Made by a program: the position numbers and the translations under genes. Shown in pieces: positions 6,561 through 24,990 of a stretch of DNA of 64,000 nucleotides (within the stretch, counting starts at the first letter, position 1; each line of letters opens with the position of its first letter). The notes beneath the pieces are model-generated. The model ran no database searches and was not told where the DNA came from. It saw only the letters and a list, made by a program, of their open reading frames with translations. This DNA comes from Escherichia coli (GTDB lineage Bacteria > Pseudomonadota > Gammaproteobacteria > Enterobacterales > Enterobacteriaceae), in the NCBI RefSeq assembly GCF_003334305.1, contig NZ_QOWS01000025.1. One strand, given 5' to 3'.

Positions 6561-7124
6561 TTACAGGTAAGTAATCTGGAAGGTGGTATTTGCTTCGAAA
6601 TTACCCAGATCTGGCGCATCAGCTGCGCCGACCAGCCAGGCTTTAAAGTTCAGTGTCTGCTTCGCTTTGCCTTTATTGGTAGAAGTGTCTTTCACTATTT
6701 TCTGGTCAATACCCATGCCGCTTTTGTAAGAGGTACCCAGAGAGTCACCGATCGCTAGGCTAACATTGTTAAATGCCGCACCGGTATCGGTATTGAAAAT
6801 GGTGTAATAATTGCCGCTATTTGCAGAAGAAACGGTACCAGTAAAGGTAGTGGTCATTGTTTCCTGAGTATCAAATACGCAATCTTGCAGACGAATCTGG
6901 AAACTTTTCGGCGTGGTGGTGCCGTTATTTTTCAGTTTTTCGGCACCGATATCACCCATATCAACTTCCAGTTTGTGATCGTCCGGAACGATAGAACACA
7001 CTGAGTCTTCAATGGTGCCGTAAAAACGTGCAGTACCGTTGTTACCCGCAGCGATTGTTGCCGTAGAGGTGAAAACGCCCATCACCATTGCCGCAGCAAT
7101 AGCTGTTTTAACAAACTTACTCAT
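6561..7124 (-). CDS. yfcV: major fimbrial subunit YfcV
   Basis: 187-aa ORF with signal peptide and pilin-like C-terminus (TTFQITYL); first gene of operon, preceded by a long AT-rich control region. Confidence 0.85.
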   Translation of the reverse strand: MSKFVKTAIAAAMVMGVFTSTATIAAGNNGTARFYGTIEDSVCSIVPDDHKLEVDMGDIGAEKLKNNGTTTPKSFQIRLQDCVFDTQETMTTTFTGTVSSANSGNYYTIFNTDTGAAFNNVSLAIGDSLGTSYKSGMGIDQKIVKDTSTNKGKAKQTLNFKAWLVGAADAPDLGNFEANTTFQITYL

Positions 7125-19615: not shown

Positions 19616-20530
19616 CTATTCCAGTTCTTGTCGACATGGCAGCGCTGTCATTGCCCCTTTCGCCGTTACTGCAAGCGCTCCGCAACGTTGAGCGAGATCG
19701 ATAATTCGTCGCATTTCTCTCTCATCTGTAGATAATCCCGTAGAGGACAGACCTGTGAGTAACCCGGCAACGAACGCATCTCCCGCCCCCGTGCTATCGA
19801 CACAATTCACAGACATTCCAGCAAAATGGTGAACTTGTCCTCGATAACAGACCACCACACCTTCTGCACCTTTAGTCACCAACAGCATGGCGATCTCATA
19901 CTCTTTTGCCAGGGCGCATATATCCCGATCGTTCTGTGTTTTTCCACTGATAAGTCGCCATTCTTCTTCCGAGAGCTTGACGACATCCGCCAGTTGTAGC
20001 GCCTGCCGCAAACACAAGCGGAGCAAATGCTCGTCTTGCCATAGATCTTCACGAATATTAGGATCGAAGCTGACAAAACCTCCGGCATGCCGGATCGCCG
20101 TCATCGCAGTAAATGCGCTGGTACGCGAAGGCTCGGCAGACAACGCAATTGAACAGAGATGTAACCATTCGCCATGTCGCCAGCAGGGCAAGTCTGTCGT
20201 CTCTAAAAAAAGATCGGCACTGGGGCGGACCATAAACGTAAATGAACGTTCCCCTTGATCGTTCAGATCGACAAGCACCGTGGATGTCCGGTGCCATTCA
20301 TCTTGCTTCAGATACGTGATATCGACTCCCTCAGTTAGCAGCGTTCTTTGCATTAACGCACCAAAAGGATCATCCCCCACCCGACCTATAAACCCACTTG
20401 TTCCGCCTAATCTGGCGATTCCCACCGCAACGTTAGCTGGCGCGCCGCCAGGACAAGGCAGTAGCCGCCCGTCTGATTCTGGCAAGAGATCTACGACCGC
20501 ATCCCCTAAAACCCATACTTTGGCTGACAT
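19616..20530 (-). CDS. cscK: fructokinase CscK (PfkB/ribokinase family)
   Basis: 304-aa ORF with PfkB-family motifs (VLGDAVVD near N-terminus, DSTGAGDAF near C-terminus); upstream of cscB on the same strand. Confidence 0.93.
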   Translation of the reverse strand: MSAKVWVLGDAVVDLLPESDGRLLPCPGGAPANVAVGIARLGGTSGFIGRVGDDPFGALMQRTLLTEGVDITYLKQDEWHRTSTVLVDLNDQGERSFTFMVRPSADLFLETTDLPCWRHGEWLHLCSIALSAEPSRTSAFTAMTAIRHAGGFVSFDPNIREDLWQDEHLLRLCLRQALQLADVVKLSEEEWRLISGKTQNDRDICALAKEYEIAMLLVTKGAEGVVVCYRGQVHHFAGMSVNCVDSTGAGDAFVAGLLTGLSSTGLSTDEREMRRIIDLAQRCGALAVTAKGAMTALPCRQELE

Positions 20531-20636
20531 TTTTTTCCCTTAAATTCATCTGAGTTACGCATAGTGATAAACCTCTTTTTCGCAAAAATCGTCATGGATT
20601 TACTAAAACATGCATATTCGATCACAAAACGTCATA

Positions 20637-20648
20637 GTTAACGTTAAC
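20637..20648. promoter_or_regulatory. candidate CscR operator 1 (perfect palindrome GTTAACGTTAAC)
   Basis: 12-bp perfect palindrome in the divergent cscK/cscA intergenic region; repeated identically 64 bp downstream. Confidence 0.5.
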
Positions 20649-20651
20649 ATT

Positions 20652-20667
20652 TGTGATATTCATCGCA
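20652..20667. promoter_or_regulatory. CRP-like site between the two csc operators
   Basis: TGTGAtattcaTCGCA matches TGTGA-N6-TCACA in 9 of 10 positions. Confidence 0.3.
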
Positions 20668-20700
20668 TTTATGAAAGTAAGGGACTTTATTTTTATAAAA

Positions 20701-20712
20701 GTTAACGTTAAC
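20701..20712. promoter_or_regulatory. candidate CscR operator 2 (perfect palindrome GTTAACGTTAAC)
   Basis: Second identical copy about 30 bp upstream of the cscA start; AT-rich flanks. Confidence 0.5.
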
Positions 20713-20746
20713 AATTCACCAAATTTGCTTAACCAGGATGATTAAA

Positions 20747-22180
20747 ATGACGCAATCTCGATTGCATGCGACGCAAAACGCCCTAGCAAAACTTCATGAG
20801 CACCGGGGTAACACTTTCTATCCCCATTTTCACCTCGCGCCTCCTGCCGGGTGGATGAACGATCCAAACGGCCTGATCTGGTTTAACGATCGTTATCACG
20901 CGTTTTATCAACATCACCCGATGAGCGAACACTGGGGGCCAATGCACTGGGGACATGCCACCAGCGACGATATGATCCACTGGCAGCATGAGCCTATTGC
21001 GCTAGCGCCAGGAGACGATAATGACAAAGACGGGTGTTTTTCAGGTAGTGCTGTCGATGACAATGGTGTCCTCTCACTTATCTACACCGGACACGTCTGG
21101 CTCGATGGTGCAGGTAATGACGATGCAATTCGCGAAGTACAATGTCTGGCTACCAGTCGGGATGGTATTCATTTCGAGAAACAGGGTGTGATCCTCACTC
21201 CACCAGAAGGAATCATGCACTTCCGCGATCCTAAAGTGTGGCGTGAAGCCGACACATGGTGGATGGTAGTCGGGGCGAAAGATCCAGGCAACACGGGGCA
21301 GATCCTGCTTTATCGCGGCAGTTCATTGCGTGAATGGACCTTCGATCGCGTACTGGCCCACGCTGATGCGGGTGAAAGCTATATGTGGGAATGTCCGGAC
21401 TTTTTCAGCCTTGGCGATCAGCATTATCTGATGTTTTCCCCGCAGGGAATGAATGCCGAGGGATACAGTTACCGAAATCGCTTTCAAAGTGGCGTAATAC
21501 CCGGAATGTGGTCGCCAGGACGACTTTTTGCACAATCCGGGCATTTTACTGAACTTGATAACGGGCATGACTTTTATGCACCACAAAGCTTTTTAGCGAA
21601 GGATGGTCGGCGTATTGTTATCGGCTGGATGGATATGTGGGAATCGCCAATGCCCTCAAAACGTGAAGGATGGGCAGGCTGCATGACGCTGGCGCGCGAG
21701 CTATCAGAGAGCAATGGCAAACTTCTACAACGCCCGGTTCACGAAGCTGAGTCGTTACGCCAGCAGCATCAATCTGTCTCTCCCCGCACAATCAGCAATA
21801 AATATGTTTTGCAGGAAAACGCGCAAGCAGTTGAGATTCAGTTGCAGTGGGCGCTGAAGAACAGTGATGCCGAACATTACGGATTACAGCTCGGCACTGG
21901 AATGCGGCTGTATATTGATAACCAATCTGAGCGACTTGTTTTGTGGCGGTATTACCCACACGAGAATTTAGACGGCTACCGTAGTATTCCCCTCCCGCAG
22001 CGTGACACGCTCGCCCTAAGGATATTTATCGATACATCATCCGTGGAAGTATTTATTAACGACGGGGAAGCGGTGATGAGTAGTCGAATCTATCCGCAGC
22101 CAGAAGAACGGGAACTGTCGCTTTATGCCTCCCACGGAGTGGCTGTGCTGCAACATGGAGCACTCTGGCTACTGGGTTAA
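20747..22180 (+). CDS. cscA: sucrose-6-phosphate hydrolase / invertase CscA (GH32)
   Basis: GH32 motifs (WMNDPNG, FRDP, WECPD); ORF track starts at 20738, but the Met at 20747 gives the 477-aa form I recall for CscA (either start is possible). Confidence 0.93.
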   Translation: MTQSRLHATQNALAKLHEHRGNTFYPHFHLAPPAGWMNDPNGLIWFNDRYHAFYQHHPMSEHWGPMHWGHATSDDMIHWQHEPIALAPGDDNDKDGCFSGSAVDDNGVLSLIYTGHVWLDGAGNDDAIREVQCLATSRDGIHFEKQGVILTPPEGIMHFRDPKVWREADTWWMVVGAKDPGNTGQILLYRGSSLREWTFDRVLAHADAGESYMWECPDFFSLGDQHYLMFSPQGMNAEGYSYRNRFQSGVIPGMWSPGRLFAQSGHFTELDNGHDFYAPQSFLAKDGRRIVIGWMDMWESPMPSKREGWAGCMTLARELSESNGKLLQRPVHEAESLRQQHQSVSPRTISNKYVLQENAQAVEIQLQWALKNSDAEHYGLQLGTGMRLYIDNQSERLVLWRYYPHENLDGYRSIPLPQRDTLALRIFIDTSSVEVFINDGEAVMSSRIYPQPEERELSLYASHGVAVLQHGALWLLG

Positions 22181-22187
22181 CATAATA

Positions 22188-23183
22188 TCAGGTGGAACAA
22201 CGGATCAACAGCGGGCAAGGGATCCGCGTCACTCTTCCCCCTTCACGACCTTCAATAATATGCAATGCAGCTTCCCGCCCGATAATGTCATGTGGAAGCT
22301 GAATTGTGGTCAGCGGCGGTAAAAACAGATGCCCGACGCCAACCAGATTATCAAAGCCCATTACGGCGACATCCTGCGGGATACGTACCCCCTTCGCCAG
22401 GAGAACCTGATAAGCGACAAAGGCTGCGCGATCGTTACCACATATCAGAACATCAAAATCTGGTTTGCCCGGTTTGAAGTGGGCATTGAGTAAACTTGCG
22501 AGATCGGTGTAGTGATCATCACCTGTTGCCATGTGAAATTGTTTCACCTCAGCCAGATCTCGTCCAGCATCACGCCAGGCCTGCTCAAATCCCTGCCGAC
22601 GATACCCTGTTGCCAACGCACTTTCCGGTAGCCAGAAGCATAACGGTTGACGATAGCCCGCCGCGAGCAAATGCTGTGTTGATTCATATTGTGCAGTGTA
22701 ATCATCAGGGATATAACTGGGTAACGCTGGGTCATCCGCCACACAGTTCGCCAATACAATATTTTCACCATACAGAGACTCAGGCAGCGTGATATGTCGC
22801 AGCCCCATTGTAGTATAGATAATGCCATCCGGACGGTGGGCAAGCAGCTGACGTGCCGCGCGGGCAGCGTCATCTTCAGAAAAAATATTGATTAAAAAAC
22901 TATTCCAGCCGAACTCGCTGGCGGTTTGCTCAATGGCAAGCAGAATATCAACAGAGAAAGGAGTGGTAGCCGTGTCCTGCGCCAGCACGGCGAGAGTCGA
23001 CGGCTTACGTCCTTGAGCGCGCATCTTACGGGCGGAAAGATCAGGAACATAATTCAGGGTCTGGATTGCCTGCAATACGCGGTCACGCGTTGCAGGACGC
23101 ACAGATTCTGCATTATGCATCACCCGGGAGACTGTCATCATCGACACTCCCGCCAGGCGTGCGACATCCTTTAATGAAGCCAT
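22188..23183 (-). CDS. cscR: LacI-family sucrose operon repressor CscR
   Basis: Start moved to internal Met (MASLKDVARLAGVSMMTVSRV, an HTH LacI-type N-terminus), giving 331 aa; the 397-aa track ORF carries a non-coding 5' extension. Confidence 0.9.
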   Translation of the reverse strand: MASLKDVARLAGVSMMTVSRVMHNAESVRPATRDRVLQAIQTLNYVPDLSARKMRAQGRKPSTLAVLAQDTATTPFSVDILLAIEQTASEFGWNSFLINIFSEDDAARAARQLLAHRPDGIIYTTMGLRHITLPESLYGENIVLANCVADDPALPSYIPDDYTAQYESTQHLLAAGYRQPLCFWLPESALATGYRRQGFEQAWRDAGRDLAEVKQFHMATGDDHYTDLASLLNAHFKPGKPDFDVLICGNDRAAFVAYQVLLAKGVRIPQDVAVMGFDNLVGVGHLFLPPLTTIQLPHDIIGREAALHIIEGREGGRVTRIPCPLLIRCST

Positions 23184-23425: not shown

Positions 23426-23644
23426 GTGCTGCCGCTGTATCCCGACATCAGCCCGGAAATTATTGCGATTGCTATCGGTTCAGGTGCAATTGGCTGCACG
23501 ATCGTTACGGACTCGCTTTTCTGGCTAGTGAAGCAATATTGCGGCGCTACGCTCAATGAAACATTTAAATACTATACGACAGCGACATTTATCGCTTCAG
23601 TCGTCGCTCTGGCGGGCACATTCCTGCTGTCATTTATCATCTAA
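23426..23644 (+). pseudogene. dsdX: 3' remnant of a GntP-family permease gene, most likely dsdX (D-serine transporter), truncated by the csc islet
   Basis: 72-codon frame ending 18 nt before dsdA with GntP-type C-terminal motifs (ISPEIIAIAIGSGAIG, DSLFWLVKQY); no matching N-terminal region or promoter present. Confidence 0.6.
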
Positions 23645-23661: not shown

Positions 23662-24990
23662 ATGGAAAACGCTAAAATGAACTCGCTCATCGCCCAGTAT
23701 CCGTTGGTAAAGGAGCTGGTTGCTCTTAAAGAAACCACCTGGTTTAATCCTGGCACGACCTCATTGGCTGAAGGTTTACCTTATGTTGGCCTGACCGAAC
23801 AGGATGTTCAGGACGCCCATGCGCGCTTATCCCGTTTTGCACCCTATCTGGCAAAAGCATTTCCTGAAACTGCTGCCACTGGGGGGATTATTGAATCAGA
23901 ACTGGTTGCCATTCCAGCTATGCAAAAACGGCTGGAAAAAGAATATCAGCAACCGATCAGCGGGCAACTGTTACTGAAAAAAGATAGCCATTTGCCCATT
24001 TCCGGCTCCATAAAAGCACGCGGCGGGATTTATGAAGTCCTGGCACACGCAGAAAAACTGGCTCTGGAAGCGGGGTTGCTGACGCTTGATGATGACTACA
24101 GCAAACTGCTTTCTCCGGAGTTTAAACAGTTCTTTAGCCAATACAGCATTGCTGTGGGCTCAACCGGAAATCTGGGGTTATCAATCGGCATTATGAGCGC
24201 CCGCATTGGCTTTAAGGTGACAGTTCATATGTCTGCTGATGCCCGGGCATGGAAAAAAGCGAAACTGCGCAGCCATGGCGTTACGGTCGTGGAATATGAG
24301 CAAGATTATGGTGTTGCCGTCGAGGAAGGACGTAAAGCAGCGCAGTCTGACCCGAACTGTTTCTTTATTGATGACGAAAATTCCCGCACGTTGTTCCTTG
24401 GGTATTCCGTCGCTGGCCAGCGTCTTAAAGCGCAATTTGCCCAGCAAGGCCGTATCGTCGATGCTGATAACCCTCTGTTTGTCTATCTGCCGTGTGGTGT
24501 TGGCGGTGGTCCTGGTGGCGTCGCATTCGGGCTTAAACTGGCGTTTGGCGATCATGTTCACTGCTTTTTTGCCGAACCAACGCACTCCCCTTGTATGTTG
24601 TTAGGCGTCCATACAGGATTACACGATCAGATTTCTGTTCAGGATATTGGTATCGACAACCTTACCGCAGCGGATGGCCTTGCAGTTGGTCGCGCATCAG
24701 GCTTTGTCGGGCGGGCAATGGAGCGTCTGCTGGATGGCTTCTATACCCTTAGCGATCAAACCATGTATGACATGCTTGGCTGGCTGGCGCAGGAAGAAGG
24801 TATTCGTCTTGAACCTTCGGCACTGGCGGGTATGGCCGGACCTCAGCGCGTGTGTGCATCAGTAAGTTACCAACAGATGCACGGTTTCAGCGCAGAACAA
24901 CTGCGTAATACCACTCATCTGGTGTGGGCGACGGGAGGTGGAATGGTGCCGGAAGAAGAGATGAATCAATATCTGGCAAAAGGCCGTTAA
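23662..24990 (+). CDS. dsdA: D-serine dehydratase (D-serine ammonia-lyase), PLP-dependent
   Basis: 442-aa ORF ([31 protein letters not shown]) with PLP-lysine region (SGSIKARGG). Confidence 0.96.

Follow-up and report, generated by a model that had tools for sequence, protein, structure and literature searches.

The CscR operators of the Escherichia coli csc region, together with its Crp site, are already known: their description dates from 2002, and studies of 2013 and 2024 returned to them. According to the account of Jahreis et al. (2002) given in PMC11251922, a 12-bp inverted repeat occurs in two copies between cscA and cscK and was proposed to form the CscR operators, one of the repeats carries an up-mutation that raises cscA expression, and a Crp-cAMP site adjoins the cscA -35. 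The later analysis (PMC11251922, 2024) places the 12-bp repeats on either side of the cscA promoter -35/-10, with the downstream repeat overlapping the transcription start, and reports both kinds of element, the repeats and the Crp site, as conserved in five species. Studies cited in PMC3938415 (2014) are summarized there as assigning two cAMP-CrpA sites to the bidirectional csc promoter, placing both csc transcription units under cAMP control and linking growth on low sucrose to a spontaneous mutation of the cscKB operator; the same paper describes the CscR inducer as not determined. Expression data are available for an EHEC strain having lost cscR, in which cscA is up 58-fold, cscK 156-fold and cscB 28-fold (PMC7486766, 2020). 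Furthermore, deletion of cscR raises the expression of a cscA-promoter GFP fusion, and complementation with cscR in trans brings back the wild-type phenotype (PMC7486766).

A similar organization is found at the scrY promoter with its ScrR operators (pUR400, Klebsiella scr), where the downstream operator overlaps the transcription start and a CRP site lies upstream, as is also reported for csc (PMC11251922). The scr system differs by its 14-bp repeats and by the regulon that it serves (PTS-type scrKYABR). Moreover, its CRP site is poorly conserved between species (PMC11251922), whereas both csc CRP sites are conserved.

The lac control region, composed of O3, CRP, promoter and O1, also resembles csc: an upstream auxiliary operator is followed by a CRP site, a promoter and a main operator at the start, all under a LacI-family repressor. 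The lac sites stand in the order O3, CRP, O1, and the LacI tetramer loops O1 to O3 over 92 bp. In contrast to the tetrameric LacI and its 92-bp loop, CscR has no tetramerisation helix, and csc has its operators 64 bp apart and a pair of CRP-like sites. The gal operator OE and the CytR-CRP complexes of deoP2 and cdd are comparable in another respect, since CRP sites upstream of the promoter directly adjoin or enclose an operator of the LacI family. In gal, OE is centred at -60.5 and CRP at -41.5, and in CytR-regulated promoters tandem CRP sites sandwich the repressor site.

The region analysed here shares with the csc control region of E. coli EC3132 and E. coli W (Jahreis 2002; Sabri 2013, via PMC11251922 and PMC3938415) the locus, gene order, intergenic region, two 12-bp inverted repeats and Crp site(s). 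As far as these secondary accounts describe it, nothing material differs, and our sequence is another copy of the published element. What is added to the published picture is a second CRP site, the depth and rigidity of the conservation of the whole cassette and the argument that both operators belong primarily to the cscA side.

Results

The csc locus and its intergenic control region

The window, i.e. the whole 64-kb stretch of E. coli DNA analysed, carries a complete set of csc genes:

18297-19544, minus strand: cscB, sucrose:H+ symporter, an oligosaccharide MFS transporter (TIGR00882, 594 bits; strain A7 annotation)
19616-20530, minus strand: cscK, fructokinase (NCBIfam NF006957, 507.7 bits against a cutoff of 450; strain A7 annotation)
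20747-22180, plus strand: cscA, sucrose hydrolase (invertase) of 477 aa (TIGR01322, 479.7 bits; RefSeq start)
22188-23183, minus strand: cscR, LacI-family repressor of 331 aa (profile match and strain A7 annotation)

As in the described csc regulon, cscB and cscK are divergent from cscA, cscR lies downstream, and the genes adjoin argW, a tRNA-Arg(CCT) gene at 17781-17855. The overall gene order is yfdC, tRNA-Arg, cscB, cscK, cscA, cscR, dsdX fragment, dsdA, emrYK and evgAS. E. coli strain A7 has the same sequence over this stretch (100% identity), and its RefSeq cscA start at locus position 9348 corresponds to window position 20747; an AGGA motif is present at 20735-20738, 9 nt upstream of this start. 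With the cscK start codon at 20530 on the minus strand and that of cscA at 20747, the intergenic region extends from 20531 to 20746, which is exactly the interval that a first-pass annotation of this DNA had taken for the divergent cscKB/cscA control region.

The program-made list of open reading frames overextends two of these genes. For cscA it starts at ATG 20738 (480 aa) instead of the RefSeq start at 20747 (477 aa), and for cscR at TTG 23381 (397 aa) instead of 23183 (331 aa), the latter start fitting all orthologues.

Of 5426 complete E. coli genomes, 2664 carry the region, in every case on the chromosome. In E. coli MDP9-27 the match is limited to the cscA-proximal third of the query, and cscA directly adjoins the transporter gene, which suggests a deletion of cscK together with the operator region. 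Downstream of cscR, a truncated dsdX pseudogene (23426-23644) precedes an intact dsdA (23662-24990). This arrangement is already known at the argW hotspot, where csc genes have replaced dsdC-dsdX. Such a dsdA can be reactivated through deletions that fuse it to the cscA promoter (PMC7486766).

Two identical palindromes and two CRP-like sites

Four putative protein-binding sites, with no strand assigned, were located in the intergenic region:

20611-20626: CRP2, the weaker of the two CRP-like sites, TGCATattcgaTCACA, matching 7 of 10 core positions, centre 20618.5
20637-20648: O1, distal CscR operator, exact match to GTTAACGTTAAC, centre 20642.5, lying between the two CRP-like sites
20652-20667: CRP1, candidate cAMP-CRP site TGTGAtattcaTCGCA, 9 of 10 core positions, centre 20659.5
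20701-20712: O2, cscA-proximal CscR operator, exact match to GTTAACGTTAAC, centre 20706.5

The sequence GTTAACGTTAAC is a perfect 12-bp palindrome with CG at its centre. O1 and O2 are its only two exact copies in the window, and 100 dinucleotide-preserving shuffles contained a mean of 0.00 copies; the first-pass report of two identical perfect palindromes at these positions is thus exact. The 64 bp that it gave between them is the start-to-start distance, 52 bp separating the copies themselves, and the cscA ATG follows 35 nt downstream of the end of O2. Each copy can also be read as a tandem duplication of the HpaI hexamer GTTAAC. As a direct repeat, the identity of the two sites reaches 14 nt (AGTTAACGTTAACA, 20636-20649 and 20700-20713), and over 17 nt the copies are 94% identical. 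When up to two mismatches were allowed, the window contained 8 sites against 2.08 expected, the other six being all located away from the csc genes. With respect to possible cscR autoregulation, this window scan found no site with up to two mismatches to GTTAACGTTAAC near the cscR start.

These features are those of LacI-family operators, which are short palindromes (about 12-20 bp) with a central CG step; a gene for a LacI-family regulator, cscR (22188-23183), is present at the same locus, and, as detailed below, the motif co-occurs with orthologues of this regulator and is conserved above its flanks. Two readings at the RNA level were considered separately. A hairpin formed by inverted-repeat pairing of O1 and O2 was dropped, since no predicted transcript holds both sites, and the single match from an Rfam search of 20300-20950 scored 13.8 bits (gathering score 60; E 0.18), which led us to reject an RNA element.

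The first-pass annotation had also proposed CRP control of the divergent promoters through one TGTGA-N6-TCGCA site between the palindromes. This site exists as CRP1; the notion of a single CRP-like site does not hold, two being present. Both CRP1 and CRP2 match the cAMP-CRP consensus TGTGA-N6-TCACA, at 9 and 7 of 10 core positions, respectively. Taken alone, CRP1 is statistically ordinary, four sites with at most one mismatch being found in the window against 2.27 expected. It gains credibility from other species, in which the site is found at a constant distance of 15 nt from the O1 start and reads TGTGATTAACATCA with 88% column conservation. The centres of CRP1 and CRP2 are 41 bp apart, and the two half-sites that face O1, one from each CRP-like site, constitute a perfect inverted repeat of 8 nt, ATCACAAA and TTTGTGAT, around this operator. 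CRP2 itself, on the cscK side of O1, was overlooked in the first reading; it is kept across species even in the absence of a divergent gene.

Conservation of the site module across species

A scan with one genome per species yielded 80 cscR-type loci from other species, with regulator identities ranging from 52% to 96%. A pair of GTTAACGTTAAC-like sites beside cscA-, cscB- or cscR-type genes was present in 62 of them, and the palindrome pair together with a CRP site accompanies cscR orthologues down to 52% identity. The genera that carry the pair include Citrobacter, Pluralibacter, Pectobacterium, Yersinia, Serratia, Rahnella, Rosenbergiella, Klebsiella, Enterobacter, Erwinia and Gilliamella. 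The spacing of the paired sites is distributed as follows:

64 bp: 34 loci
63 bp: 13 loci
62 bp: 3 loci
57 bp: 9 loci (Gilliamella)
68-69 bp: 3 loci (Proteus)

Over the 1.12 Mb of these loci, 155 GTTAACGTTAAC-like sites with at most one mismatch were counted, against about 2.5 by chance according to simple arithmetic, and all but one of the 155 adjoin csc genes.

To quantify conservation, site modules were oriented by the position of CRP1, and the frequency of the majority base was calculated for each column in 35 distinct modules from other species with a 64-bp spacing:

O1 (distal operator): 1.00, the 12-mer being invariant in 35 of 35 modules
O2 (proximal operator): 0.96, with a conserved CAAT tail
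CRP1: 0.88
CRP2: 0.73
Spacers and flanks: 0.40-0.51

Both CRP-like sites therefore hold a conserved position in orthologous promoters. The operator consensus extends across species to the 14-mer TGTTAACGTTAACA. The complete module reads, in order, tgtgATc.cgATCaCA (the cross-species consensus of CRP2, with 73% column conservation), N8, aTGTTAACGTTAACt, TTtGTGATTAACATCa, about 33 poorly conserved nt and GTTAACGTTAaCAaT, followed by the start codon 35-45 nt further on. Judged from these alignments, the pattern is one of selection on four putative protein-binding sites and not of recent transfer.

The 18 of 80 loci that lack the pair fall into four groups. Three loci end right at the transporter gene, leaving the control region out of range. 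In Providencia and Moellerella (L019, L022-L024, L026, L029, L035), a single exact GTTAACGTTAAC is located between cscA and a divergent cscK-like gene, and no second site with up to two mismatches was detected at 50-75 bp from it. Some Gilliamella and Orbaceae loci show variant arrangements. Finally, L020 (Yersinia pestis), L028, L034 and L076 carry a cscR-like gene and no cscA in the flanks (up to 7 kb on each side); these regulators may be orphan or decayed, or may be paralogues with other targets.

In addition to its 57-bp pair on the cscA side, Gilliamella (L044-L064, at about 6820-6855) has a second control region, located between cscB and cscR. Two half-degenerate sites, TTTAACGTTAAC and GTTAATGTTAAC, lie next to each other there, at a distance of 14 bp.

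Candidate promoter positions and geometry of the sites

Since a scan of 20480-20800 for consensus sigma-70 promoters and terminators gave no hits, we inferred the cscA and cscKB promoter positions from CRP geometry and conservation. Two candidate elements were obtained:

20688-20699, plus strand: candidate cscA -10, either TATTTT (20688-20693) or TATAAA (20694-20699), placed by geometry
20565-20573, minus strand: invariant block TGATAAACC of a four-species alignment, reading TATCAC on the cscK strand, candidate cscKB -10

On the cscA side, E. coli, C. amalonaticus and Pluralibacter share an invariant CTTTAT at the candidate -10. Should CRP1 lie at -41.5, the usual class II position, cscA transcription would start at about 20701, the first base of O2, with TATTTT as the -10. 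In this frame CRP2 would be centred at -82.5 and O1 near -58.5, and O2 would begin at +1. The position -82.5 is a known class I position of CRP. The spacing of 64 bp is then the sum of three intervals: O1 and CRP1 are 17 bp apart, CRP1 stands 41.5 bp ahead of the start, and the centre of O2 lies about 5.5 bp beyond that start. These presumed positions agree with the published description of the cscA promoter (PMC11251922).

The cscKB promoter is less sharply defined. The TGATAAACC block, 35-43 nt upstream of the cscK ATG and invariant in E. coli, C. amalonaticus and Pluralibacter gergoviae, is the sole invariant block on the cscK side of the four-species alignment, and the candidate cscKB -35 elements are inconsistent between species. 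The block may be the cscKB -10 or the site of another protein. With TATCAC as the -10, the cscKB start would be near 20557, CRP2 at -61.5 and O1 at about -85. O1 is called the cscKB operator in the literature, as cited in PMC3938415. No operator-like sequence was found over any candidate cscKB core promoter, and repression via O1 would therefore have to go through interference with CRP.

O1 and O2 stand on either side of the cscA promoter. Loci of the Yersinia, Serratia and Cedecea types still keep CRP2 and O1, although the gene next to O1 does not diverge from the cassette there. Since the cassette exists without a divergent gene, it probably constitutes one unit acting on the downstream promoter. 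Both operators thus probably belong primarily to the cscA-side promoter, rather than one to each divergent promoter. The E. coli cscKB promoter shares this cassette, and the divergent arrangement looks like an addition.

CscR and its proposed mode of action

The homologues of CscR show hits to the Pfam domains PF00356 (HTH), PF00532 and PF13377, and the closest solved structure to CscR is 6ndi (E 2e-114). Orthologues of CscR occur across Enterobacterales at 52-79% identity. In an alignment of 16 orthologues, 56-79% identical to E. coli CscR, residues 1-20 (helix-turn-helix) and 45-55 (hinge) are near-invariant, which fits the invariant operator. CscR aligns to LacI residues 5-313 and ends 13 residues later; it consequently lacks the LacI tetramerisation helix and, on the basis of this alignment, is probably a dimer. 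For such a dimer, the 64-bp spacing requires no loop.

This bears on the possibility that the palindromes are indeed CscR operators and that repression relies on a DNA loop, a CscR tetramer bridging O1 and O2 and trapping the cscA promoter, in the manner of LacI on lac O1 and O3. The 64 bp between the sites correspond to about 6.1 helical turns, placing them on roughly the same face, a spacing of 63-64 bp is kept in 47 of 62 loci, and the order operator, CRP, promoter, operator is that of lac O3, CRP and O1. However, the geometry of the promoter fully accounts for the conserved spacing. Moreover, the pairs of Gilliamella, at 57 bp (about 5.4 turns), would lie on opposite faces, and those of Proteus are 68-69 bp apart. 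Given these off-phase spacings and the missing C-terminal helix, a loop formed by a tetramer appears improbable.

Could the palindromes be bound mainly by another LacI-family regulator with an AACGTT core, such as Cra/FruR or a scr-type ScrR, CscR acting elsewhere or indirectly? The central AACGTT is shared by several LacI-family operators, and a literature search for EMSA or footprinting of E. coli CscR gave nothing relevant. On the other hand, the outer GTT...AAC is unlike the Cra consensus TGAA...TTCA, and the motif accompanies orthologues of cscR in 62 of 80 species, almost all of its copies adjoining csc genes. In addition, deletion of cscR alone derepresses the genes, and cscR in trans restores the wild type (PMC7486766). 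Binding mainly by another regulator is therefore very unlikely. As a separate observation, CscR itself cannot be taken for CytR, whose model gives 136.6 bits against a cutoff of 436. Finally, the idea that the pair is a functionless remnant of a local duplication, or chance HpaI sites, has almost no probability left and can be considered as effectively refuted: the copies do share 14-17 nt as a direct repeat, but shuffles give no exact copy, and 12-mers that remain 96-100% conserved next to spacers at 40-51%, with regulators only 52-70% identical, point to purifying selection.

Discussion

The two palindromes are very probably CscR operators, embedded in a cassette of fixed geometry that consists of CRP2, O1, CRP1, the cscA core promoter and O2. 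Their assignment to CscR, already made in the first-pass annotation, is supported by the csc gene context, the published assignment and the cross-species comparison. The sites, their conservation and their linkage to cscR are directly observed, and according to the literature loss of cscR or mutations in the operators derepress the csc genes.

From the deduced promoter positions, the presumed oligomeric state of CscR and its proposed action at O1, the following regulatory scheme could be envisaged. Without sucrose, CscR dimers would occupy both O1 and O2. At O2, located at or just after the cscA transcription start, bound CscR would block RNA polymerase, and at O1 it would interfere with the CRP-dependent activation of both cscA and the divergent cscKB. 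In the presence of the inducer, CscR would be released from DNA. Once CscR is off and glucose is absent, cAMP-CRP would activate the cscA and cscKB promoters.

The location of O1 is of particular relevance to this scheme. Since the two CRP sites, of 22 bp each, leave 19 bp between them and O1 sits in this gap, CscR bound there would have to exclude or touch CRP. Among the known systems, gal OE, at -60.5, is close to the position of csc O1, near -58.5 if CRP1 is at -41.5. The csc CRP centres, 41 bp apart, are closer together than the about 52-53 bp of CytR-regulated promoters. Besides, CscR differs from CytR by its model score.

As regards practical use, the csc locus serves in sucrose-based fermentation with E. 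coli W and in sucrose biosensors. For such applications the conserved geometry, composed of an invariant 12-mer, a spacing of 63-64 bp and two CRP sites around O1, is a precise design rule for engineering.

A broader, tentative reading is that the cassette is an ancient one, kept at fixed geometry in Enterobacterales and Orbaceae even where there is no divergent transcription. CscR at O1 might then act as an anti-activator between two CRP dimers, excluding or contacting CRP like GalR at OE or CytR, rather than as a simple block to polymerase, and the cscKB promoter might have been grafted onto the cassette and be repressed solely by anti-activation.
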